64,000 nt of DNA from a virus (lineage: Duplodnaviria > Caudoviricetes): the IMG/VR virus record IMGVR_UViG_2808606532_000002, positions 1 to 64,000 of that record, one strand, 5' to 3'. Made by a program: the position numbers and the translations under genes. The notes under the pieces are model-generated. The model ran no database searches. It saw nothing but the letters and a program-made list of their open reading frames with translations, and was not told the origin of the DNA. Position 1 is the stretch's first letter. Each line of letters starts with the position of its first letter. Below are positions 4,789 to 44,125 of the stretch, one piece after another.

Positions 4789-5450
4789 TGCGACCAACCC
4801 AAAGGCATTTTCTAGAGGCATCAGCGAAAAAGGCGCATATGCAAGAAGAGCACTTACTCGCTGGTGCCACGGAATACGAAAAAATGCTCTATCTTCTTGC
4901 TCGTCATAAAAAGGATTTAAAAGAAATTCATTCTATGGAGCTAAAGGCAGAATATAAAAAGAAAATTCTGCCTGATTACCTACCATGGATAGAAGGCGCT
5001 TTAAGTAGTGCGAGTGGTAAACAAGATAATGTCTTAATGACATGGTTAATTTGGTCAATTGACTGTGAGCAATATCATCTTGCGTTACAAATTGCCGAAT
5101 ATGCTATTCATCAAGGGCTTGTATTGCCAGAAAACTTTAACCGCACATTATGTTCTGCGCTTGTGGAAGAATTTGCGGATAAAGCCAAAATTGCACAAAA
5201 ACTTAACCGCACTTTTGACGTTGCCTATTTAGAGCGAATAGCGAAACTCACTGATGAACAAGATATGCCAGACGAAAGTCGGGCAAGACTTTACCGTGAA
5301 ATCGGCTTATTAAAGCTCACATCAGAACCAAAAACTGCCTTAACCTACTTAGAACGGGCATTAGAGCTAAATTTAAATATTGGTGTACAAGGGGAAATCA
5401 AAAAATTGCGCAAACAGCTTGAGCAAGAAAATAAACCCAACGACCAATAA
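4788..5450 (+). CDS. M: Terminase endonuclease subunit
   Basis: LPDYLPWIEG, QDNVLMTWLIW, DMPDESRARLY; synteny. Confidence 0.92.
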   Translation: MRPTQRHFLEASAKKAHMQEEHLLAGATEYEKMLYLLARHKKDLKEIHSMELKAEYKKKILPDYLPWIEGALSSASGKQDNVLMTWLIWSIDCEQYHLALQIAEYAIHQGLVLPENFNRTLCSALVEEFADKAKIAQKLNRTFDVAYLERIAKLTDEQDMPDESRARLYREIGLLKLTSEPKTALTYLERALELNLNIGVQGEIKKLRKQLEQENKPNDQ

Positions 5451-7843: not shown

Positions 7844-8332
7844 ATGCTCAAAGCCGAATTAATACGCAGTCTATTACAACAAGTTTCAGAAGATCTACGC
7901 AAAAACCCAGATAAATTAGAGCTATTTATTGATGAAGGGCTTATTGTTGGTGCTGGCGCCCATTCCGCATCTTATGAACTCCAATATACCTTAAATATTA
8001 TCGTAAATGATTTTACTGGCTCACCTAATATGATTTTTGCGCCCCTAATGGACTTTATCCGCGAAAACCAACCCGATTTAGTGGATAACCCAGAAAGAAG
8101 AAAAGACGGTTTCCGCTTTATCGCAGACCATAACAACCACGACAGCATAGATCTATCTATTTATCTAAAACTTACAGAGCGAGTGCTCGTAAAAGAAGAA
8201 AACGGAAAAAATATCATTAAACACCTAGATGAACCACGCCTAAATGAATACCCAGACATTACAGAATGGCAATTATTTATTGGTAATAACCTAGTGCAAA
8301 CATGGCAAACAGAAAATAAAGAGCGCCCATAA
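7844..8332 (+). CDS. R: Tail completion protein R
   Basis: NPDKLELFIDEG, DLSIYLKLTERV, HLDEP. Confidence 0.88.
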   Translation: MLKAELIRSLLQQVSEDLRKNPDKLELFIDEGLIVGAGAHSASYELQYTLNIIVNDFTGSPNMIFAPLMDFIRENQPDLVDNPERRKDGFRFIADHNNHDSIDLSIYLKLTERVLVKEENGKNIIKHLDEPRLNEYPDITEWQLFIGNNLVQTWQTENKERP

Positions 8333-8790
8333 TGGACGAAATGTTACAAGTCAAAACGGCTTTTGATACCTTATTAAAAAATATCTCAAAAGAACGCCGC
8401 AGATTGCTCTACCAACAAATCGGACGAGCACTTGCACAAAGTCAACGCAGACGCATAAAAGCACAGCAAAATCCCGACGGTTCTGCTTATGCACCTCGCA
8501 AGAAAAAAGTGCGGTCAAAAAAAGGCAGAATAAAAGCGCAGACCATGTTCAAAAAAATTAGCCAAGCCAAACACATGAAACTCCGTTACCAAAAAGAAGG
8601 CATTGAACTCGGCTTTAGTGGTAATACCGCCTATATCGCCAATATTCATCAGTACGGCTTAAAAGCAAGAGTAGAACGGAACAAGGCACATAAAGTGCAA
8701 TACGCCCAGCGTGAACTACTGGGCTTTACAGAACAAGATAGAGAAATGATAGAAGATTTTGTGGTTAAGGCGTTGGCTGATGGAATATAA
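8332..8790 (+). CDS. S: Virion morphogenesis / tail completion protein S
   Basis: QQNPDGSAYAPRK, IHQYGL, YAQRELLGF. Confidence 0.9.
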   Translation: MDEMLQVKTAFDTLLKNISKERRRLLYQQIGRALAQSQRRRIKAQQNPDGSAYAPRKKKVRSKKGRIKAQTMFKKISQAKHMKLRYQKEGIELGFSGNTAYIANIHQYGLKARVERNKAHKVQYAQRELLGFTEQDREMIEDFVVKALADGI

Positions 8791-8793
8791 AAA
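8590..8793 (+). repeat. Direct repeat copy 1 (3' end of gene S)
   Basis: 204 bp, matching 9384..9587 except for 2 substitutions seen. Confidence 0.95.
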
Positions 8794-8817
8794 AACGGTC
8801 AGAGTTGACCGCTGTAT

Positions 8818-9261
8818 TTAGCTGTTTTGATATTCTTTATAGGCGAAATAGCTACAACCAAATAAGAATACACCAAATAAAGAAAGTGTAAGCAAAGGAT
8901 TATCTGTTGAAGTAACAATAAATACGAACGGAGAAATAAGTAAGGCTAGTAGGAAAATAGCAACAGCTCCAACCAAAGGTAAAACGACAAAGGATAGCCA
9001 GAGATTTTTTGTGAGACTTACAGCCAGTTTAGTTATAGCTGGGAACTGTTGAGTAATTGCTGATGAGGCAAAATTTAATAAATAAACAACGAAACCAATC
9101 GCTGATAACACAATAATAGCCGCAATAATATAAGGAATTACTGAAATTAACTCAGTAAATCCAACTACAATAAAAGGTAATGTCACTAAAAAGCTAACAA
9201 CACTCACTATACTAAAGAATATTGTAAAAATAGCCATAATATCCTCCTTTTTTAGCATCAT
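8818..9261 (-). CDS. Moron membrane protein 1 (about 4 TM)
   Basis: Very hydrophobic ORF; likely start ATG 9237 after AAGGAGG; own TTGACA (9281-9286, minus strand). Confidence 0.75.
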   Translation of the reverse strand: MMLKKEDIMAIFTIFFSIVSVVSFLVTLPFIVVGFTELISVIPYIIAAIIVLSAIGFVVYLLNFASSAITQQFPAITKLAVSLTKNLWLSFVVLPLVGAVAIFLLALLISPFVFIVTSTDNPLLTLSLFGVFLFGCSYFAYKEYQNS

Positions 9262-9310
9262 AAAACGACAGTTAATTATCTGTCAATAAATAATCAATCT
9301 AGGAATAAAT

Positions 9311-9390
9311 ATGAGTAAAGATTTAAAAATTCAAATTATGTTATCTGCAATGGATAAATTTACAGCTCCAATGGGACGAGCTGCAAAAAG
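9311..9390 (+). pseudogene. Orphan 5' stub of a tape measure gene
   Basis: Encodes MSKDLKIQIMLSAMDKFTAPMGRAAK, homologous to MSQNLKIQVLLNAIDKLTAPFRSASK at 10572; fused to the gene S duplicate. Confidence 0.85.
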
Positions 9391-9587
9391 AAGGCATTGA
9401 ACTCGGCTTTAGTGGTAATACCGCCTATATCGCCAATATTCATCAGTACGGCTTAAAAGCAAGAGTAGAACGGAACAAGGCACATAAAGTGCAATACGCC
9501 CAGCGTGAACTACTGGGCTTTACAGAACAAGATAGAGAAATGATAGAAAATTTTGTGGTTAAGGCGTTGGCTGATGGAACATAAAAA
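9384..9587 (+). repeat. Direct repeat copy 2 (duplicated 3' end of gene S)
   Basis: Near-identical to 8590..8793. Confidence 0.95.
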
Positions 9588-9620
9588 GCAGTCAGATCAA
9601 TAACTACTCTGAAACGAGAA

Positions 9621-10013
9621 TTAACCCAGAACCCAATAACCAAATAACAACAGAAAAAGGGTAAGCGAAGCACCCATTTCCATGCTAAAACCATAATTAG
9701 CTTGTGCATCAAGGTCACAATGTCCTGTTTTTTTCTGGTAAAGCATTAATAGAAAATCAAATAGCATCATCACAGGCACAAAGGCTAAAGCTAAAAACAA
9801 ACAGGCAAGCCCAATGGGAATCATCAAAAAAAGAGAGATAACGGATGTCGCTGCTAATTTTGACCAAGTAAGATCGGAGAAATCCAAGGCATAATGTCCC
9901 ATAATCAAACAGGCAATCAGCGTAAACAACATAGAAATATGCATAATATGCCCAAGCCAAAATAGTGTAAAGTTTTCCTTGTTCTGTTGAGAAGAAAAAT
10001 CAGACTGTAACAT
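9621..10013 (-). CDS. Moron membrane protein 2 (3-4 TM)
   Basis: Hydrophobic ORF, AAGGGG RBS, TTGACA-17-TAAGTT promoter on minus strand (10061-10066 / 10038-10043). Confidence 0.7.
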   Translation of the reverse strand: MLQSDFSSQQNKENFTLFWLGHIMHISMLFTLIACLIMGHYALDFSDLTWSKLAATSVISLFLMIPIGLACLFLALAFVPVMMLFDFLLMLYQKKTGHCDLDAQANYGFSMEMGASLTLFLLLFGYWVLG

Positions 10014-10162
10014 AACAACCCCTTATTTATTTTAGGTAACTTAATTCCTTTTTTATTGAATGTCAATACGGATTAAACGAACTAAGTGCCTAGCATTCTT
10101 AGCCAATAAATAGATTATTCCACATCAAATGGGAGAAAAAGAATGAACAAAAATTTAGATGC

Positions 10163-10230
10163 GTAGGGTGCGCTTTAGCGCACCAATTAAATTAATCTAT
10201 TTGATAATGGTGCGCTAAAGCGCCCCCTAC
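10163..10230. repeat. GTAG-type REP doublet (REPIN-like)
   Basis: GTAGGGTGCGCTTTAGCGCACCA ... TGGTGCGCTAAAGCGCCCCCTAC inverted pair with AT-rich spacer. Confidence 0.8.
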
Positions 10231-10234
10231 TAAA

Positions 10235-10495
10235 CTATCGAAGGGAATTATAGTTAGGCCCGAATTTACCAATAAAAAACAATGTAGCAAGGATGCAAAT
10301 AACACTCAACAGCCAACTATCAATATAAATAAAAGTTAGGAGTAAAACACTCACTAATAGCCCAATATGCCAATGTTTTATACAAAAATAAAGGGTTTCT
10401 AAGAGTATAGAAAGAAATGAGATACCAATGGATAAGGTAAAGCAGAGAGCCAAGAATATTAAAATAGGTACTAATAAGATAAATAGTCCAGACAT
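10235..10495 (-). CDS. Moron membrane protein 3 (about 3 TM)
   Basis: Hydrophobic ORF, AAGGAGG RBS, TTGACA at 10541-10546 on minus strand. Confidence 0.72.
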   Translation of the reverse strand: MSGLFILLVPILIFLALCFTLSIGISFLSILLETLYFCIKHWHIGLLVSVLLLTFIYIDSWLLSVICILATLFFIGKFGPNYNSLR

Positions 10496-10571
10496 ATATC
10501 CTCCTTTTTTTGAAAGAGATTACGCCATTTTTATTAGATATGTCAATTATTATTGATAAAGAGAGAAAACC

Positions 10572-13221
10572 ATGAGTCAAAATCTAAAAATACAAGTATT
10601 GCTGAATGCGATTGATAAATTGACAGCTCCTTTTCGCAGTGCATCAAAACAAATAAAATCAACATCATCAGCAATAAAAGCCAATAAAAACTTATTAAAA
10701 AAATTAGAAAGTGCGCAAGAACGAGTTAAAAAAACAGGTTTACCACAAGCGCAAGAAAGGCTAAAAAATAAAATTGAGCAAACCACTCAAGCGATAAAGA
10801 AACAAAACCAAGCACTTGATAGATTAAATAAACAAGCCAAAAAGCAAGCTCAATATGATGCAAATGTAAAATTACTAAAAAAGGCGAACCAATTTACTTC
10901 TAACTTTGGACAGAGTTCAATGATGCATGGCGCAGCGGTATTAGGAGGTGGTTCATTTGCAATGAAACCAGCTTTAAATTTTGAAGAAGAATTTTCCAGA
11001 GTGCAGTCGCTGACTAGACTCGATAAAACAAAAGACGCAGAAAAAATAAAACAACTACGCGACCAAGCTAAGCACTTAGGTGCAACAACATCTTTTACTT
11101 CTGGTGATGTGGCAGCAGGACAAAGTTATTTAGCAATGGCTGGGTTTAACCAACGTCAAATTTTAGATTCTATGCCGTCAATACTAAATATGACTAAAGC
11201 TGCTGGAATGGAAATGGGACGAGTATCTGATATTAGTTCTGATATATCTTCCGGATTTAAGATACCAGCAGAAGAAATGAATAGAGTTGCTGATGTGCTA
11301 ACTTTAACTTTTACGTCATCGAATACAAATCTTGAATTATTGGGTGAGACAATGAAATATCTCGGCCCAATCGCATCATCAACAGGACAAGATTTTGAAA
11401 CGATGTCTGCTATGGTTGGATTACTGGGTAATGTGGGGATAAAAGGTTCTCAAGCTGGTACATCGTTGAGAGCGGCAATGTTGCGATTGGCGGGTCCTCC
11501 TAAACAGGCTAAAGAGGCATTAGATAAGTTAGGTGTATCCGCTAAAGATGCAAAAGGTAATATGCGTTCAATGACGGATATTTTAATTGATGTCAGCAAA
11601 AAAACCGAAAAAATGGGTAGTGCTAAAAAAATGGAGTACTACAAAGCCATTTTTGGAGCTGAAGCAGCCACGGCAATGGTTGAATTAGTAAATCAAGCAG
11701 GGACAAAAGGAATTCAAGAATTTGCAGAACAATTAAAAAATGCGTCTGGAACAGCAGAAAAAGTAGCTAAAACAATGTCAGATAATGTCATTGGTGATTT
11801 AAAAAATTTACAAAGTGTAGCTGAGTCTATCTCAATTTCTATTTTTGATGAAACAAATAGCGAAATTAGAGAAATGATCCAGCTGTTAAGTGGAGCCTTA
11901 AGGGAGATCAATGAATGGATAAAGCAAAATCCCAAACTTACCGCAACTATTATGAAATGGTTTGCTGGATTAGGCTTAGGGCTAGTTGTAATTGGTGCTT
12001 TAAACTTAGCATTGAGTTATTTGTTTTATCCTGTTTGGCGGATGATTTTACTTTTAAGCAAATTAAGCGAGGCATGGACATTTGGTAAGGTATTATTATT
12101 CGGCAAAACCCTAGCAGATGGTTCAAAGAAAGCAGGCTTATTTGCAAAAGCGGGCAATTTATTAGGGCGAGTTTGGAAAGCGGTTCCTAAAGTATTTTCT
12201 ACCGCATGGAAATTTGTGGTAATGCTTGGACAAAATTTCGTTAAATATATCCTACTCTTTGGCAAAACCTTAATTAGCGTGATACCTAAAATTATGGCAT
12301 TTAGTGCCGCTCTCTTCACTAATCCAATCTTTTGGGTTATTGCGGGAATTGTTGCCTTAATCGCTGGATTATATTTACTTTGGAAACATTGGGACAAAGT
12401 CAAAAAAGCCTTAATTGCTGGTTGGAATTGGGTTAGCCAAATCTTTGAACAAAATCCGATTTTAAATGTGTTATTCCCAATTGTGCCACTTATTAAAGGT
12501 ATTATCTGGGTAATTCAAAATTGGGGGGGTAATTGTTGATACAGTAAGTAATGCAATCAGCGGTGCTTGGGAAAAACTCAAAACCAAAGCAAGTGAGGTA
12601 TGGACAAGTATTAAAAATTGGTTTGCAGATGCCTTAAAACCGCTTGAAAGTCTAAAAAGTGGTGTGCAATGGCTTATAGATAATCTCAGTAAAATTTCAT
12701 GGGACGGCATTAAGCAAGGTGCAAAAGACCTTGGCAATAACATCAAAAACTATGCTGATGAAAAAGCGACTCAGGCAGGTAATTGGGCTCGTGACAAATG
12801 GCAAAGAACTAAAGATTTTTTTAGTTTTAGCTCGGGTGGTTATACTGGCAACGGTGGCAAATACGCCCCAGCTGGTATCGTACATAAAGGCGAATATGTC
12901 ATGACCAAAGAAACAACATCACGCCTTGGTGTACCTCTACTTAATGCTCTTAACTACGGTAAAAAAGCCATGCTGACGGCTGGCGTGGGAATGACGGTTG
13001 CCACGGCACAACCTTTTGTTATTGATAACAGACCGCCATTAAATCCAAGCGCCACGCATAATCCACAAAGCACAAGCCAACCGATGCAAGTGACTATTAA
13101 TATCAATGCAACGACAGGACAAAGTGCTGTAGATATTGCAAGAGAAGTGGAAAAAGCCTTAGTGCGTATTGAGCAACAAAAACAAGCTCGTGTAAGATCC
13201 AGTTTAAGAGATAGAGATTAA
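10572..13221 (+). pseudogene. T: Tail tape measure protein (TP901-core type), frameshifted at a G7 run
   Basis: LGATTSFT, LAMAGF, GIKGSQAGTSLR; C-terminal GYTGNGGKYAPAGIVHKGEYV; removing one G from 12523-12529 fuses 10572..12539 with 12664..13221. Confidence 0.88.
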
Positions 13222-13285: not shown

Positions 13286-13921
13286 TTGTTGCTCAAGGAG
13301 CCGAAAAGCTATAATATTGTGCAAATTTTTGGGGGAACAATGACAAATTTTTCATTAAATCCTATTTTTGATGGATTAAAGCCGATATTTGCACAATGCA
13401 AAATAGCCGTGATGTCCGTTTTTATTCTCTCTCCAGTGGCATTTAGTGCCACTCAAAGCAACGTTGTTGAAAATAAACCTATTCAAATTCGTGGCATTAA
13501 TGCAATATCGCAACATACCAATACTGAATTAAATCAGTTTATTGATAATATGATTGGGTTAATTAATACCATTAATCCTTTTATTGATTTTACTACCCAA
13601 ATTGCCTATGAAATGGGGGCATTAATTACCGACCAAGATTTAATTGAGTTGGAACAAAGATTAAAAGACTTTAATCAAATTACACAACAAATAAAAGTGA
13701 ATATGCCACAATCTATTGAAAAAAATAAAATCTTTGTTGAAAAGTTGATGTCTCTTAGCCAAAAAATGACAATATTCTCTCAAGTTGTTAAAAGTGTAAA
13801 GTATAAAGCCATATCAGATAAAGTTGTTTCTACTCGCATTTATCAGGGAGAAGAAAGTATCGGTTATAGATTTAATGCCGAACATAATTTTGATGAGTTC
13901 AAAAAATTGATATTAGCGTAG
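13286..13921 (+). CDS. Hypothetical moron protein (possible partner of downstream toxin-like gene)
   Basis: AT-rich ORF; probable start ATG 13340 after GGGGGA; 5 bp from next gene. Confidence 0.65.
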   Translation: MLLKEPKSYNIVQIFGGTMTNFSLNPIFDGLKPIFAQCKIAVMSVFILSPVAFSATQSNVVENKPIQIRGINAISQHTNTELNQFIDNMIGLINTINPFIDFTTQIAYEMGALITDQDLIELEQRLKDFNQITQQIKVNMPQSIEKNKIFVEKLMSLSQKMTIFSQVVKSVKYKAISDKVVSTRIYQGEESIGYRFNAEHNFDEFKKLILA

Positions 13922-13926
13922 CAATT

Positions 13927-14367
13927 ATGGCTGAGATGATAATTGACTTATCTGGAGAATTTAAGGAAGGGCGTTTGAATACGCCTTTTTTTAAAGACGT
14001 TCAGTATATGAATGAGGATGAATTAAAAATCCTTTTCCAATTTATGCAAGATGTGGGGACATGAAAACCATTACGGGGTAAAAATAAACCATCTTGGCTC
14101 AATGATAACCTTGATAGACTTCCTAATACTGAATTTTATGAACAACATAACATTTGGCATTATCATTGTGGTCCTTATCCTGAAAGCACTCGCTTAAACC
14201 AAATCCGCCATTTAAAATTTAATTTGAATGGAGAAACATCAAGCGCAGTTATTCATTATCAAAAAATAAGTGATAACCATATCTTTATATTAGCTTATTC
14301 GCCACAGCATGAGCCTTTTCCTAAAGAAAGTGATATACCTAATCCATTATTACAAAGATTAAAATAG
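13927..14367 (+). pseudogene. WHYH-motif toxin/nuclease-like protein with in-frame TGA at 14062-14064
   Basis: Hand translation: MAEMIIDLSGEFK...QDVGT*KPLRGKNKPSW...IWHYHCGPY...SSAVIHY...LAYSPQHEPFP; missing from ORF track. Confidence 0.7.
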
Positions 14368-14375
14368 ATTCATAT

Positions 14376-14609
14376 TTGTCTGCTCAATCAAATAGTGTTA
14401 GGATTGTGAAAATTAAAGCGGAGGTTTATATGTTGCTGAAAGAAAAAGGCTATGATGATTTTGTCAAAGATTGCGTACAAAAAGGGCGTGATGAATTAGA
14501 TGCAGGACTAGGTGTTAGTCTAGAACAGGCAAAAGAAAGTTCACGTAAACTGATTGAACGTAAAGCAAAAGAATTAGAAAGCCTTAACGGAAAAGTGGCT
14601 TATGCCTAA
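14376..14609 (+). CDS. Antitoxin of RelE/ParE pair
   Basis: Small ORF (likely start 14430) with GRDELDAGLGVSLEQA motif, overlapping the toxin start. Confidence 0.75.
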   Translation: MSAQSNSVRIVKIKAEVYMLLKEKGYDDFVKDCVQKGRDELDAGLGVSLEQAKESSRKLIERKAKELESLNGKVAYA

Positions 14610-14886
14610 AGTTATCATTCTTCCACAAGCCTTAAATCAAATTAATGAAATCATTGAAAATGTTATTGAATTTACAGGCTATGAAGCAAGTGGCATTCGT
14701 TTATTTGAAGATATTTACGATAAAATAGATCAAATTGCATTTATGCCTCTTGCGGCAGGTCGCTTAAGAGATGATGGAACTAGAGAGGCTTTTGTTAGAC
14801 GTTATCGTATTGTCTATGAAATTAAAGAAAATCATATTTTTATCTTAACTGTTATCCATAGCAGCCGAATTTACCCTCAACCATAA
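14602..14886 (+). CDS. RelE/ParE family toxin
   Basis: GTREAFVRRYRIVYEI...ILTVIHSSR. Confidence 0.88.
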   Translation: MPKVIILPQALNQINEIIENVIEFTGYEASGIRLFEDIYDKIDQIAFMPLAAGRLRDDGTREAFVRRYRIVYEIKENHIFILTVIHSSRIYPQP

Positions 14887-22051: not shown

Positions 22052-22190
22052 ATGTCTTTACCGAATAAATTAAAATTGATGCATTTACATCAAGATGGCC
22101 ACAGTTATTTAGGGCAAGTTAACGAGGTTACTCGCCCGAAACTTGCGATTAAAGCTGAAAGTTATCGTGCTGGCGATATGTTAGGCGGAA
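22052..22190 (+). pseudogene. FII: Tail tube protein FII, truncated after ~46 codons
   Basis: MSLPNKLKLMHL...YLGQV...PKL...YRAGDMLGG is the FII N-terminus; similarity stops abruptly. Confidence 0.88.
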
Positions 22191-22235
22191 CCGCCCTTCA
22201 ATTCAATCTAAAGAGCGACTTGTTTTGTTATTCAT

Positions 22236-29886: not shown

Positions 29887-31201
29887 GAGCCTCTCCCATA
29901 ATTTGTGTAAATACCTTTTTCTGAGATAATACATCTAGATACAGGCATTTTATTATGAACGAAAAACAACTTCACGCCTTGGCAGCGGAATTTGCCAAAA
30001 CCCTAAAAACCCCAGAAGACCTTAATCAGTTTTCACGAATGCTCAAAAAAATCACGGTAGAAGCGGCGTTAAATGGTGAGCTGACAGACCACCTTGGCTA
30101 TGAAAAGCATCAGCCCAGAAAAGGCAAAAATGCACGTAATGGCTACACATCCAAGACTATCATCTGTGATGAAGGTGAGATAGAAATTGACACCCCTCGT
30201 GACCGCGATGGCAGCTTTGAGCCACAACTTATCAAGAAAAATCAAACCCGTATTACCGGGATGGATGAACAGATTATTGCCTTATATGCCAAGGGCTTAA
30301 GCAATCAAGAAATCGTTGAAATGTTCAAAGAACTCTATGATGCGGATGTGTCAACAAGCCTGATTTCTCGTGTGACAGATTCTGTAAAAGAACGCGTAAT
30401 AGCATGGCAAAGTCGTGCACTTGATGCAATTTACCCGATTGTTTACTTGGATTGTATCGTGGTGAAAGTGCGTCAAGATGGACGAATTATCAACAAATCC
30501 GTGTTTGTGGCATTAGGTGTCAATCTGGAAGGACATAAAGAACTTTTAGGGCTTTGGATTGCGGAGAATGAAGGGGCGAAGTTCTGGGCTAATGTGCTCA
30601 CTGAATTACAAAATCGTGGCTTGAAAGATATTTTTATTGCTTGCGTAGATGGTTTAAAAGGCTTTCCAGAAGCTATCAATGCGGTTTATCCGCAAACAAA
30701 GATTCAGCTTTGTATTGTGCATTTAGTGCGTAACAGTTTGAAATATGTCTCGTGGAAAGATTACAAAGCGGTGACAGCAGATTTAAAGGGAGTTTATCAA
30801 GCGCCAACGGAGGCTCAAGCACGCGAAAATCTGACCGCACTTTCGCAAAAATGGCAGGCAAAATACCCGCTTGTGGCGAAATGTTGGGAAGATAACTGGG
30901 CAAATATTGCGACCTTTTTTGATTATCCCAACGATATCCGCAAAGCGATATATACGACGAATGCAGTGGAATCGCTTAATAGTGTGATTCGTCGTGTAAT
31001 TAAAAAACGCAATGTGTTTCCAACGGATGATTCGGTGTTCAAAGTAATTTGGCTTGCGATGAAAGATGCCTCAAAAAAATGGACAATGCCGATTCAAAAC
31101 TGGAAACTGGCGATGAATCGATTTATGATTGATTTTGGTGCTCGCTTAGACGAGCACCGTTAAGTTGAAATGGGTGTTTACACAGAATTTGGGATGGGGT
31201 C
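29887..31201 (+). mobile_element. IS256-family insertion sequence
   Basis: Imperfect TIRs GAGCCTCTCCCATAATTTGTGTAAATACC / GGTGTTTACACAGAATTTGGGATGGGGTC; 8-bp TSD CCTTTCTC at 29879-29886 and 31202-31209. Confidence 0.95.
29955..31163 (+). CDS. IS256-family transposase
   Basis: PRDRDGSFEP, YPIVYLD, CVDGLKG, QLCIVH, YTTNAVES. Confidence 0.96.
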   Translation: MNEKQLHALAAEFAKTLKTPEDLNQFSRMLKKITVEAALNGELTDHLGYEKHQPRKGKNARNGYTSKTIICDEGEIEIDTPRDRDGSFEPQLIKKNQTRITGMDEQIIALYAKGLSNQEIVEMFKELYDADVSTSLISRVTDSVKERVIAWQSRALDAIYPIVYLDCIVVKVRQDGRIINKSVFVALGVNLEGHKELLGLWIAENEGAKFWANVLTELQNRGLKDIFIACVDGLKGFPEAINAVYPQTKIQLCIVHLVRNSLKYVSWKDYKAVTADLKGVYQAPTEAQARENLTALSQKWQAKYPLVAKCWEDNWANIATFFDYPNDIRKAIYTTNAVESLNSVIRRVIKKRNVFPTDDSVFKVIWLAMKDASKKWTMPIQNWKLAMNRFMIDFGARLDEHR

Positions 31202-42739: not shown

Positions 42740-42844
42740 ATAGCCATAAATCGATAGGGCATAGGGACGTTTCGGACGTATGCGGATGCAAATCTTTAAG
42801 ATTGGGAATTACGCACTATGTGAGATTTATGGCTTTTTCTTTTT
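42740..42844 (+). ncRNA. Putative structured sRNA convergent with the MuF-nuclease gene
   Basis: TTGCTT(42705)-17-TATACT(42728) promoter; 11-bp closing stem AGCCATAAATC/GATTTATGGCT, internal stems, T tail. Confidence 0.62.
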
Positions 42845-44125
42845 GGATTTTTTCCTAATCCACATTGTTTTCATTGTTAATTTTTTGTGTTTTTTACGCA
42901 CCTCTTGAACAGTAAAGATCTCATCATCAATTTCTTTTCGGATTAAGAATGTATCATTACCTAAGTCGCTAGGTCCAGCATATTCAATGCTATCAAAATT
43001 AGAAATAATCATTGGAAGCAATAAAATATCAGCTTTAGTAACTGCTCGCTGTCCTCTTGCCTGTTCTGTTTTATCGTTACCATGGTGTTTAAATGTGTGG
43101 CGAATACCTGATTCATCTACATTATGTTTCCAGTCTGATATATCTAAACCTATGCTTTCTTTAGCTAATTCAACTAAATCAAATCTAACCACGCCTATAT
43201 CGCTAAATAATTTATTCCCACCGCCACCTATGGATTGTTCAATTAAATCAGCCAAATCCCTTTTACCAGAGATATATCCATTGGATTTTTCTGTTTTTTC
43301 TTCGGCTTGAGGTTTTAGGTTGTCATCCAACACTGGTATCTGCACACACCGACAGTTAATTTCATGCCCTGGATGTCCTGTTTCAGGCGGATCGTCATAG
43401 CTAAAAATCTTGCCGTCATTTTCTGCGTGACTGGTTCTCACTCGTTCATCGCCTGATGTACTCCAGCGGTATTTCTTAATACCAACATCTTGATAGCGAA
43501 CTTGGGTGAGGGTAGCGTTGAGTTTTGATGACTGATCACGAGCAATTAACCTTGCTCTACTTTCAGTTACATTGCCAATTTGTCTAATCTCTTTGGCTAA
43601 ATCCGCATTGAGCTTACCCGTCATAACTGATTGGGTTACTGCGGTTTGCACTTTGTCTAAATACTGATTGCTAATGGATTTAATTAGCTGTGTGTTAGCT
43701 GTGGTGAGCAAATTTACCTTTTCCAGTAGGGCAGGGCTATTGCCTAGAAAACCTTGCAAATTTACGCCTGTTTGACGTTGTAAATTCGCAGTAACTTCTC
43801 GTGTGTTTTGTTGATTACCACGTTTTACAAACTCTTGAGCAAGATTTTCAGCCGTTAAAGAGCGGTCATTTTCCGCTAATTTTTTGACAACGGCTAAAAA
43901 TCGTTGAGTGTCAAAAACCTTGAAACCATTGTCGCTATCCATTAAAAAAGGGGATTGCGGTTGTTGCAATGCCCCTTCTACTTGTTTTCTTAATGCCCCG
44001 ACTAAACCGAGCAACTGGCGACTATACCAAAATTCCGTCTGTTTACTCGTTTTGTTCGGTTTGAACTTGCGTATTTTCGGTTTGTTCTTCTGGTTCTTCC
44101 AAATCTCGGGTAAGTTCATCAACAT
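42827..44125 (-). CDS. MuF/SPP1 gp7-type minor head protein with C-terminal PBECR-type nuclease domain
   Basis: RARLIARDQ, WSTSGDERVRTSH, PGHEINCRC; extension IRHTFKHHG...RGQRAVT...DILLLP...QEVR...MKTMW. Confidence 0.85.
   Translation of the reverse strand: MLMNLPEIWKNQKNKPKIRKFKPNKTSKQTEFWYSRQLLGLVGALRKQVEGALQQPQSPFLMDSDNGFKVFDTQRFLAVVKKLAENDRSLTAENLAQEFVKRGNQQNTREVTANLQRQTGVNLQGFLGNSPALLEKVNLLTTANTQLIKSISNQYLDKVQTAVTQSVMTGKLNADLAKEIRQIGNVTESRARLIARDQSSKLNATLTQVRYQDVGIKKYRWSTSGDERVRTSHAENDGKIFSYDDPPETGHPGHEINCRCVQIPVLDDNLKPQAEEKTEKSNGYISGKRDLADLIEQSIGGGGNKLFSDIGVVRFDLVELAKESIGLDISDWKHNVDESGIRHTFKHHGNDKTEQARGQRAVTKADILLLPMIISNFDSIEYAGPSDLGNDTFLIRKEIDDEIFTVQEVRKKHKKLTMKTMWIRKKSKKKKP

Follow-up and report, generated by a model that had tools for sequence, protein, structure and literature searches.

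The gap between the tail completion gene S and the tape measure gene (TMP) holds three genes for small predicted membrane proteins that are unrelated to each other, although this cargo slot usually takes one. The window, by which we mean the whole 64,000-nucleotide stretch of DNA that was analyzed, contains this prophage of the P2 family from a dog-associated Pasteurellaceae bacterium. The three genes very probably are a stack of morons built by recombination. An anti-phage function, argued from analogy, falls just short of even, and exclusion specificity acting through the TMP is unlikely. The proposal as a whole, a moron slot with stacking by misaligned recombination and a likely exclusion role, is one that we favor slightly. 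The features of the locus are as follows.

7844..8332, plus strand: gpR, tail completion gene (Pfam PF06891, E 3e-39)
8332..8790, plus strand: gpS, tail completion gene (Pfam PF05069, E 5e-39); last gene of its own late operon and left anchor of the slot
8794..8813, minus strand: hairpin, then T7 run (terminator scan: 8 pairs, tail TTTTTATATT); cassette 1 terminator, also at the end of the S operon
8818..9237, minus strand: cassette 1 (C1), 139-aa all-hydrophobic protein (ORF and hydrophobicity)
9257..9286, minus strand: candidate sigma-70-like promoter of C1 (TTGACA, 18 nt, TATGAT; 11/12 matches)
9311..9400, plus strand: TMP stub 1, a 29-codon ORF whose codons 1-26 are an MSKDLKIQ-type TMP start (tblastn; junction read from the sequence)
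9384..9587, plus strand: duplicated S 3' end (S codons 87-152 and stop) with no in-frame translation (repeat D1, 204 nt, 99%)
9621..10013, minus strand: cassette 2 (C2), 130-aa predicted membrane protein (ORF and hydrophobicity)
10061..10066, minus strand: TTGACA, 53 nt upstream of the C2 start; no full promoter from the scan
10143..10160, plus strand: doubtful "stub 2" (ATG and five codons), alternatively the U-tract of the C3 terminator (sequence)
10156..10237, no strand: REP-like palindromic doublet (inverted repeat I1); long minus-strand hairpin right behind the C3 stop
10235..10495, minus strand: cassette 3 (C3), 86-aa predicted membrane protein of the slot's commonest family (ORF and family comparison)
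10541..10546, minus strand: TTGACA, 51 nt upstream of the C3 start and 26 nt before the TMP start codon
10572..12539, plus strand: TMP, first 655 codons, right anchor of the slot (Pfam PF10145, E 4e-55; phrog_28, E 2e-144)
12517..12523, plus strand: G7 run that shifts the TMP frame (G6 in locus L063, with an intact 882-aa TMP)
12664..13221, plus strand: TMP C-terminal part in a different frame (phrog_24 and other TMP PHROGs; 100% identical to the L063 TMP end)

The three reverse-strand genes reported between S and TMP in a preliminary description are present as ORFs, and all are strongly hydrophobic, with hydrophobic stretches across most of each protein. For C1, the 139-aa frame at 8818-9237, which starts behind AAGGAGGA, is likelier than the 147-aa frame at 8818-9261 with a start at 9261. 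The proteins had been described as lacking evident mutual similarity, and indeed, pairwise Smith-Waterman z scores of −0.8 to 0.5 against shuffles indicate that they are unrelated. Structure models were all-helical with a pTM of only 0.34 to 0.38, and structural comparison of the cassettes returned no match. Moreover, Pfam, PHROGs, NCBIfam, and PADLOC gave no family above cutoff for C1 to C3 and 20 other slot proteins, described exclusion and defense families included. When compared to 5.8 billion proteins, C1 matched only itself, and it is weakly like cassettes of Caviibacterium and H. parahaemolyticus. The C2 family has 3 credible representatives among 1.84 billion and is present in 2 of 236 Pasteurellaceae genomes, while the C3 family is found in 16 of the 236, and C3 itself is 30% similar over 87 aa to its counterpart in locus L009. 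GC content is 32.1% in C1, 36.9% in C2, and 31.4% in C3, versus 41.4% in S and 37.7% in TMP; low cassette GC may merely reflect hydrophobic codons. C1 to C3 most likely are expressed in the lysogen and located in the inner membrane.

Each cassette had been credited with its own TTGACA promoter, and a perfect TTGACA does lie 49, 53, and 51 nt upstream of the start codons of C1, C2, and C3, respectively. The motif count was 4 versus 1.8 expected, a number reached in 19 of 200 shuffles, and the common spacing alone is notable. The rest of the promoter claim fared less well, as only the C1 promoter passed a scan for −35 and −10 elements (11/12) and promoter-like sites were not enriched (5 versus 7.9 expected). 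As is typical of morons, C1 and C3 have terminators of their own, in the form of the hairpin and T7 run behind C1 and the REP hairpin with a U-run behind C3; C2 is followed by no more than a degenerate S hairpin copy. C1 also is missing from L063 at 99% flank identity, and the GC content of C1 and C3 is unlike that of the flanks, two further marks of morons.

The slot is conserved among relatives. We surveyed 41 PHL101-like loci of Pasteurellaceae, collapsed to 22 distinct loci, and all 22 had at least one reverse hydrophobic ORF: 18 hold one, 2 (L007 and L027) hold two, and 2 (the window and its type-strain twin, L063) hold three. The slot of locus L065 also holds one. Slot proteins fall into about 12 families of 33 to 174 aa, very hydrophobic and with few charges, and mini-ORFs of 22 to 33 aa are present in slots as well. 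Purifying selection acts on the families, as expected of real genes: of 23 pairs compared in 7 families, 21 had a dN/dS of 0.08 to 0.47 and 2 were undefined, and the C2 family gave values of 0.2 to 0.38. On the right flank, TMP residues 8 to 20 are nearly invariant even as TMPs overall are 23 to 63% identical. As in P2 and PHL101, the cassettes come after the S terminator and ahead of the gene that opens the next late operon, and they are read from the opposite strand. We conclude that the S-TMP gap is a conserved cargo, or moron, slot of the PHL101/Baylorvirus-like branch of the P2 family.

C1 and C2 of the window are separated by a scar. Positions 8590-8793 recur as a direct repeat at 9384-9587 (204 nt, 99%) that begins at S codon 87, at CAAAAAG. 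There, the 26 TMP codons of stub 1 run into S codon 87, and the frame of the stub is not that of the S copy. The start of stub 1 matches the resident TMP N terminus (56% over 27 aa, tblastn E 3.6e-4, small database). The TMP stub is that of a diverged allele and is fused at CAAAAAG to a duplicate of the S 3' end, as the preliminary description had it. The duplication is not an assembly artifact, because the independent assembly L063 carries it letter for letter. Moreover, contigs of public runs X1 and X6 continue stub 1 past 9390 as an open TMP-like frame, and therefore a parent in which C1 adjoins an uncut TMP of the stub-1 allele probably exists. A second TMP stub, MNKNLD at 10143, had been proposed as well, but it is 18 nt long, indistinguishable from chance, and 82 nt from its TTGACA, versus 22 to 32 nt at real TMP starts. 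On the minus strand, these letters form the U-tract that trails the REP hairpin downstream of C3. The second junction is not demonstrable.

Scars of the same type occur in the two-cassette loci. In L007, the junction is at GCATCAA, where a stub of about 24 codons meets S near codon 105, and the left part of the locus is 91% like L009 while the right part is 99.6% like L025. In L027, an 11-codon stub of the L028 allele is joined to a copy of the S terminator. Both loci are chimeras of identifiable parents that share the TMP-stub/S-flank scar, and therefore the stacks arise by unequal recombination at microhomology. Single cassettes also swap through the conserved flanks: the window and L063 are 99.3 to 99.8% alike on both sides of a 495-bp segment containing C1, which is replaced in L063 by 142 bp with a 33-aa ORF. 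Mismatches cluster at the edges of the swap, at 8586-8691 and 9316-9340. Array content differs in L063 and in runs X2, X3, and X6. That the cassettes were captured from different P2-family relatives is supported by sequence comparison, each belonging to its own family with relatives in this slot or in remnants.

We propose that the slot, lying between the end of one late operon at S and the start of the next at TMP, usually takes one reverse gene that encodes a small protein of the inner membrane and comes with a sigma-70-type promoter, a Shine-Dalgarno site, and a terminator of its own. Phages would trade this cargo by homologous recombination, with the S 3' end and terminator as one flank and the first 20 or so TMP codons as the other. 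Occasionally, a misaligned crossover at microhomology may fuse the 5' end of TMP to the S 3' flank of a different genome, and the product would keep both cargos with a TMP stub and an S 3' copy left between them. This would have happened at least once, and probably twice, in the lineage of the window to give three cassettes, with C1 swapped again later. The proteins, made in the lysogen, would then keep related phages out, either by superinfection exclusion at DNA entry or by abortive infection at the membrane. Keeping related phages out is, by analogy, the most probable role of the cassettes, and superinfection exclusion in particular is plausible.

The analogies come from several systems. 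In P2, S is followed by a terminator, the reverse nonessential orf30, and then the pV site. Three moron regions are known in P2-like phages, the S-V region among them, and the cargo there, directly behind S and its terminator and before the next late operon, is likewise reverse, nonessential, and variable among relatives (PMC6823313). The present slot differs in that the next operon opens with TMP, the cargo is always a small, predicted multipass membrane protein and is up to three deep with recombination scars, and the TGT-N12-ACA activator site was not found at the locus. The gp15 moron of HK97 is also a self-contained gene directly before the TMP gene and encodes a small inner-membrane exclusion protein (PMC3594210). 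The prophage expresses it, and whether an incoming phage is excluded reportedly depends on the tail/TMP region of that phage (PMC3594210, PMC10883804), as hybrids with HK022 tail tube and TMP genes escape (PMC10883804). For TP-J34, TMP changes are described that overcome the block (PMC10883804). HK97 differs in being a siphovirus with a single such gene of no sequence relation to the cassettes, which lack a Pfam match and whose role is only predicted. The phage of the present locus is contractile-tailed. The TMP-linked exclusion proteins described to date act on long non-contractile-tailed phages (PMC10883804), a contrast that counts against the exclusion reading. SieA of P22 resembles the cassettes as a small inner-membrane protein in divergent sequence types, being about 160 aa with three predicted transmembrane segments, less than 30% identical between types, and able to block DNA injection (PMC10883804); its sequence is unrelated, and its genome position and phage type are different. 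Finally, a described phage hotspot also shows high gene turnover in small loci between two conserved phage genes, sometimes with more than one system, but it lies beside cos and holds larger, recognizable defense systems, whereas the slot between S and TMP holds only tiny predicted membrane proteins (PMC9122126).

Whether each membrane protein blocks DNA entry of phages with "its" TMP type, such that stacking widens the range of exclusion, can be weighed against the distribution of families. The family of the TMP-adjacent cassette covaries with TMP body identity (r = 0.66, and still 0.66 after S is partialed out; permutation p about 2e-4) but not with S identity (r = 0.12; p = 0.07), in loci that are phylogenetically related and not independent. 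With near-identical loci collapsed, same-family pairs show 55% versus 34% TMP identity and 63% versus 61% S identity, and the cassette follows TMP rather than S in three contrasts (L007/L025, L027/L041, and L001/L047). Moreover, the stubs of L007 and L027 carry the TMP allele that usually accompanies their cassette, the TMP C-terminal region is hydrophobic, and TMP-linked exclusion has the precedents above. Covariation, however, is predicted by linkage alone, because in a divergent TMP only the short conserved start is available for recombination. The pairing also has exceptions: the MSKDLKIQ-type start has family B as its neighbor in 8 loci, but in the window lineage it has C1, the 33-aa ORF, and probably a third sequence; the L027 TMP N terminus has 38 of 40 residues in common with L022 and 37 of 40 with L072 despite a different cassette family; and family A adjoins TMPs only 28 to 34% identical. 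Cassettes resemble their own TMP no more than other TMPs (cognate rank 1 to 14 of 15, mostly 6 to 14), and the same specificity of two compared SieA types argues against simple type-for-type pairing (PMC10883804). Thus, the expected covariation of family and TMP allele stands for the TMP body, but cognate pairing is an improbable account of it. In polymorphic toxin systems, orphan immunity arrays grow by recombination in a conserved flank and leave truncated copies of the neighboring gene between small membrane or immunity genes. The window is alike in its growth and its truncated copies, but an orphan immunity unit keeps the variable domain of the neighbor with the cognate gene, and here the stubs are only 11 to 26 codons (6 to 26 if "stub 2" is counted) of the nearly invariant TMP start, with no variable domain and no toxin. 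The locus therefore does not fit that class, and with the pairing exceptions and the lack of a defense-family match, the earlier reading of allele-specific exclusion in the manner of orphan immunity arrays was not upheld. That slot genes and TMPs are coevolving cognate pairs in a contractile-tailed family, with each protein halting the DNA that one TMP type guides through the inner membrane, and that from these pairs prophages and remnants build multispecificity "exclusion arrays" by misaligned recombination as a phage-versus-phage counterpart of orphan immunity arrays, seems less probable still.

Two readings without exclusion deserve consideration beside the exclusion role that we prefer. 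The cassettes might be membrane-acting toxins, abortive-infection proteins, or lysis-timing proteins (RexB-like, holin-like, or type I toxin-like) controlled by antisense read-through of the late operons. Their size, hydrophobicity, and scarcity of charges would fit, as would the mini-ORFs in slots and the position of the cassettes, antisense between two late operons and 1.3 kb from the lysis genes. Nevertheless, we doubt this strongly, as the Pfam, PHROG, NCBIfam, and PADLOC searches matched no holin, Hok/Gef, or other toxin family, a search for a partner antitoxin or RNA family found none, and the lysis cassette is complete (holin, lysozyme, and Rz) without slot genes. Alternatively, the stack might be neutral debris of a decaying prophage, in which relaxed selection keeps junk recombination products and hydrophobic ORFs without present function. 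The element indeed looks defective, as its TMP is frameshifted (G7 versus G6), its tube gene breaks off at position 50 of a 165-position profile, and gpD was not found in the 72-kb record; a second prophage also abuts it. The scars may therefore persist simply from relaxed selection. Debris is nonetheless very unlikely to account for the cassettes: the three ORFs are intact in two strains, with C2 and C3 99 to 100% conserved between the window and L063, the families are under purifying selection, and stacking also occurs in L007 and L027, where the TMP ORFs are uninterrupted. Moreover, C2-like genes outlive their prophage, as C2 relatives lie at two prophage remnants in two species with a dN/dS of 0.2.

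The locus is a clean, dated record of the growth of a prophage cargo slot, in which the scars name both recombining partners and the microhomology used, and the type of event recurs in three lineages. About a dozen families of very small predicted membrane proteins, unstudied so far, are also defined here; they invariably lie next to the TMP gene and follow it in their evolution. Should they prove to act in exclusion, no earlier exclusion protein would have been linked to TMP in P2-type contractile phages, and their natural variation in specificity could be used to study the passage of phage DNA across the inner membrane. Otherwise, the interval from S to the TMP start still serves as a convenient anchor in the search for cargo genes of Pasteurellaceae prophages.

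The REP doublet noted in the preliminary description was confirmed. It is an inverted repeat with 30-nt arms (10156-10185 and 10208-10237, 87%) and a minus-strand hairpin with a predicted fold of −44 kcal/mol (z = −8.1). As a REP/BIME-like repeat would, the palindromic unit recurs in the Canicola haemoglobinophilus CCUG 3714 genome, though in low copy number: 3 loci have it, one as a like doublet, versus 0 loci for the reversed pattern.

The gap between the tail gene S (gpS) and the tape measure gene (TMP) is a P2-family moron slot in which small membrane morons adjoin the TMP. Loci were fetched with gpS as the anchor (59 viral and 35 genome loci), and S followed by TMP was found in 41 loci, counting the window and Mannheimia phage PHL101. 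Collapsing left 22 distinct loci, and all 22 carried a reverse-strand hydrophobic open reading frame (ORF), or cassette, in the gap. A single cassette was present in 18, with gaps of 247 to 499 bp. Arrays of differing length, which the preliminary description suggested looking for, also occurred: two cassettes in loci L007 and L027 and three in the window and L063, its near-twin in Canicola haemoglobinophilus CCUG 3714. In L065, where the TMP is cut by the contig end, the slot held one ORF of 174 aa. The slot is already known in kind, since in P2 the gene S is followed by a terminator, by orf30, which is reverse-oriented and nonessential, and by the V operon activator site, and since an excerpt counts the S-V region as one of three classical sites of morons in P2-like phages (PMC6823313). 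A limited literature search returned no description of a TMP-adjacent slot filled by tiny membrane proteins in this branch, and a term search of the comparison paper on Mannheimia phages returned no mention of the S-TMP slot (PMC4553209).

The provirus record containing the window is 72,105 bases long, and a P2-family prophage, represented by its left part, fills bases 1 to 22,200 of the window. Before gpR, the head and lysis genes are, in order, portal, terminase, scaffold, capsid, small terminase, head completion, holin, lysozyme, Rz, and a DksA-like zinc finger protein. From gpR on, the features are as follows.

7844-8332: gpR
8332-8790: gpS, with the slot region directly after it
8818-9237, reverse strand: cassette 1 (C1), small membrane ORF
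9621-10013, reverse strand: cassette 2 (C2), small membrane ORF
10235-10495, reverse strand: cassette 3 (C3), small membrane ORF
from 10572: TMP, then a 211-aa ORF, a ParE-family ORF, gpV, W, J, I, fibre, and sheath

The direct passage from S to TMP is the gene order of PHL101 (genus Baylorvirus), which is annotated as S, terminator, reverse 92-aa ORF14, and tail protein T. Phage HP1 was rejected as a model for the locus, as its gene order differs. The window region has a 99% identical copy in L063. The interval from the TMP to gpV holds further cargo at 13286-14886, namely, the 211-aa ORF (phrog_18778, with relatives in several loci) and the ParE-family ORF, and PHL101 carries a "toxin" ORF at the matching position.

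The preliminary description of the slot was largely right. Three minus-strand ORFs do lie between S and the TMP, although C1 more likely starts at 9237, behind AAGGAGGA, than at 9261 as proposed. Each ORF is hydrophobic over almost its full length, with only 5 to 12 charged residues, and the three indeed lack mutual similarity (z of -0.8 to 0.5). The reported direct repeat at 8590-8793 and 9384-9587 is 204 nt long and 99% identical and begins exactly at S codon 87, CAAAAAG. The reported TMP fragment, stub 1, is an ORF at 9311-9400 in which 26 TMP-start codons run on, out of frame, into the S copy for three codons before a stop. The inverted repeat at 10156-10237, described as a REP doublet, is also present, and three loci in the Canicola genome carry its palindromic unit, one of them as a very similar doublet (the reversed pattern, used as a control, gave 0 matches). 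As minus-strand RNA, the doublet folds with -44 kcal/mol (z of -8.1), and since this hairpin immediately follows the C3 stop and is itself followed by a U-run, it can serve as the C3 terminator. Rfam returned only two sub-threshold miRNA-family matches for the hairpin, which we ascribe to chance. The exception is a doubtful second TMP fragment, stub 2 (at 10143, an ATG followed by five codons), which lies 82 nt from its TTGACA, versus 22 to 32 nt at real TMP starts, and which coincides with the U-tract of the REP hairpin.

Each cassette was also said to have its own promoter. A perfect TTGACA box precedes each start, by 49 nt for C1, 53 nt for C2, and 51 nt for C3, but only the C1 promoter passes a -35/-10 scan. 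Promoter-like sites were not enriched (5 observed versus 7.9 expected), nor was TTGACA itself (4 versus 1.8 expected, with at least 4 in 19 of 200 shuffles). A search for a P2-type activator site, TGT-N12-ACA, found none. We note that the depositors of PHL101 placed the promoter of its reverse ORF14 at 4856-4885 of locus L001, within the first TMP codons. If they are correct, a cassette of that kind could stay expressed after stacking only if it retained a TMP stub.

How the stack arose is suggested by its joints. Three independent stacks, that of the window and L063 and those of L007 and L027, bear a scar of one kind. In the window and L063, TMP codon 26 is fused to S codon 87 through the 7-nt microhomology CAAAAAG. 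In L007, the left part (S, a family A cassette, and the TMP start) is 91% like L009, and the sequence from S codon ~105 on is 99.6% like L025, whose single cassette is of family I and whose TMP is the same; the two parts meet at GCATCAA, behind ~24 TMP codons. In L027, the order is a Mannheimia-type cassette, an 11-codon TMP stub, a copy of the S terminator, a family B cassette, and the TMP. That stub is exactly the TMP allele paired with the Mannheimia-type cassette in PHL101 and L028, and the L027 TMP is 69% like that of L041, another locus with family B. Thus, every internal junction is a TMP 5' end fused to an S 3' flank, at differing points in the three stacks. Junctions of this form are what would remain if two genomes paired at the slot and crossed over out of register.

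Logan contigs bear on the parents of the window stack; they derive from mixed samples and were matched at 90% likeness, and regions without contig cover were not counted as absent. Contigs of two public sequencing runs, X1 and X6, continue stub 1 beyond 9390 in an open TMP-like frame, and because of this extension a parent with C1 beside an uncut TMP of the stub 1 allele probably exists. In a contig of X6, the S terminator is fused directly to the REP doublet before C3 (shorter side of 52 letters; that of X1 is only 29), a hint that the slot also exists with one cassette, as S, REP, C3, and TMP. Joints with sides under 31 letters were discarded (9390>10157, 9577>10579, 10234>10630, and 8813>10153 of X1). 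The proposal that the cassettes came from different relatives is therefore supported, both by the L007 and L027 scars with their identifiable parents and by the X1 and X6 contigs.

Single cassettes are swapped as well. The window and L063 are 99.3% identical to the left of C1 and 99.8% identical to the right, and the 495 bp that carry C1 in the window are replaced in L063 by 142 bp carrying a one-helix ORF of 33 aa, a form of the slot also found in run X2. Mismatches cluster at the edges of the exchange, with 5 of 7 on the left at 8586-8691 and 3 of 9 on the right at 9316-9340. The S copy is the same in both, and the full S of L063 has a patch resembling the S fragment of L074, a prophage remnant. 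Because TMP residues 8 to 20 are nearly invariant although the TMPs are 23 to 63% identical overall, the TMP start is well suited as the right-hand recombination arm. TMPs of the H. influenzae type (L009, L010, L011, L016, L019, and L069) match the N terminus of the window TMP twice, at aa 3-45 and aa 19-197, which suggests an internal N-terminal repeat.

Selection argues that the cassettes are real genes, as dN/dS was 0.08 to 0.47 in 21 of 23 pairs across seven cassette families (two pairs were undefined). The 48 slot ORFs form 12 BLAST clusters. C3 falls in the largest, sharing 30% identity with the H. influenzae type across 87 aa, and its family profile matched in 16 of 236 Pasteurellaceae genomes. 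The only relatives of C2 are one protein from a metagenome and genes of two prophage remnants, and its family profile gave four matches, three of them credible. C1 is weakly but collinearly like cassettes of Caviibacterium and H. parahaemolyticus (E of 3e-5 and 0.007 as single comparisons; z of 6.7 and 5.4) and gave only two marginal matches across the 236 genomes (E of 0.002 to 0.007). Word-based homologue searches with C1, C2, and C3 each found the query alone. In the phage database, blastn with the region matched nothing beyond the S gene in 10 Mannheimia phage records (7% query coverage), and tblastn with family A had no match. No cassette scored above a family cut-off in Pfam, PHROG, NCBIfam, or PADLOC, and the top Protein Atlas score for C2, 0.83, was at chance level. 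AlphaFold predicted long helices and no reliable fold for C1 (pLDDT of 80, pTM of 0.38) and C2 (pLDDT of 63, pTM of 0.34), and Foldseek against viral models gave nothing at an E of ≤0.001.

Whether cassettes are matched to tape measures is less simple. The preliminary description proposed allele-specific exclusion, in which each cassette is tied to a TMP type, and predicted that the two would co-vary. The outcome agreed with this prediction. Among 21 distinct loci, which are related by descent, sharing of the TMP-adjacent cassette family correlated with identity of the TMP body (r of 0.66, also 0.66 as a partial correlation on S; permutation p of ~2e-4; AUC of 0.91) and did not correlate with S identity (r of 0.12; p of 0.07; AUC of 0.60). 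The window (same as L063, TMP frameshifted), L023 (488-aa TMP ORF), and L065 (TMP cut) were left out. When near-identical loci were collapsed, 16 remained, and TMP identity was 55% for the same family versus 34% otherwise, compared with 63% versus 61% for S. The correlation is in line with allele-specific exclusion but is not decisive, as exceptions exist and linkage suffices. Linkage alone yields the asymmetry because S is conserved and recombines freely, and a divergent TMP crosses over only in its short conserved start. As to the exceptions, the TMP start type MSKDLKIQ accompanies family B in eight loci but C1 in the window and the 33-aa ORF in L063. The N-terminal TMP residues of L027 agree with those of L022 at 38 of 40 positions and with those of L072 at 37 of 40, and the cassette family nevertheless differs. 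Moreover, family A sits beside TMPs that are just 28 to 34% identical. Finally, the stubs retain the conserved TMP N terminus alone and thus are scars, not displaced alleles. Allele-specific exclusion is regarded as a minority reading. A separate idea, that a cassette is a decoy mimicking its own TMP, was rejected, as cognates ranked anywhere from 1 to 14 of 15 and did not score above non-cognates.

What the cassettes do may be approached through their moron character. They appear to have the marks of morons both in signals (a constantly spaced -35 box, strong Shine-Dalgarno sequences at C1 and C3, and terminators behind C1 and C3) and in content (GC of C1 and C3 below that of the flanks, presence or absence among near-identical genomes, and antisense orientation to late genes). 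C2-like genes are kept in two prophage remnants with a dN/dS of 0.2, and this purifying selection favors a benefit to the host. One remnant (L074, 5412-6950) belongs to the Canicola type strain, where it adjoins tRNA-Arg and tRNA-Pro and is flanked by host genes on both sides. Besides the C2-like gene, it contains a reverse-strand membrane ORF of 121 aa, a hydrophobic mini-ORF of 22 codons, and a fragment of S (aa 59-139, with 90% identity). The other (L108, 6930-7830, in Histophilus somni) stacks an S fragment, a second copy of the prophage's own family G cassette, and the C2-like gene just beyond the head-gene end of the resident prophage. By analogy, the closest functional precedent is the HK97 moron gp15, described in an excerpt as an inner-membrane exclusion protein encoded directly before the TMP gene, with a block that depends on the tail region (PMC3594210). 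Other membrane defenses reported, again in excerpts, to meet the injection machinery are P22 SieA and the TMP-dependent blocks of TP-J34 and HK97 (PMC10883804) and SNIPE, a TMP-associated nuclease (PMC13190303). All of these precedents, however, concern tail types other than that of the window phage. Given the moron marks, the retention of C2-like genes, and precedents from other tail types only, an anti-phage role for the cassettes may be given slightly less than an even chance, and specificity for the TMP seems unlikely.

The phage itself may no longer be the beneficiary. The window TMP is frameshifted by a G7 run at 12517-12523, which leaves 655 aa and 185 aa, whereas L063, 99.8% identical, has G6 at the same run and an intact TMP of 882 aa; the G7 could reflect an error in sequencing or, alternatively, a change that inactivates the gene or is phase-variable. 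The P2-type tube gene (22061-22210) ends after 50 of 165 profile positions, gpD was found nowhere in the 72-kb record, and a second, different myovirus-type prophage starts at ~22.5 kb (22499-58300), convergent with the P2-type element. On these grounds, the P2-type element in this genome is probably defective, and the cassette stack may now be of use to the host instead of the phage. Elsewhere, the TMP ORF of L005 and L066 (6837-8759) has 640 aa, is 93% identical over that length to the 975-aa TMP of L012, and may be another broken tape measure gene.

The second prophage encodes a fibre, baseplate J, a TMP, a DUF3383 sheath-like protein, capsid, portal, terminase, DnaB, and an S24 repressor. 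A DUF4376 gene lies beside the fibre gene in both prophage elements, the two facing each other. The tail region of the second prophage contains a Mutator-family transposase gene (PF00872; E of 2.5e-117) at 29955-31163, and its Mu F-like head protein (42827-44125) has a C-terminal PBECR3 nuclease-type domain (E of 2e-21).
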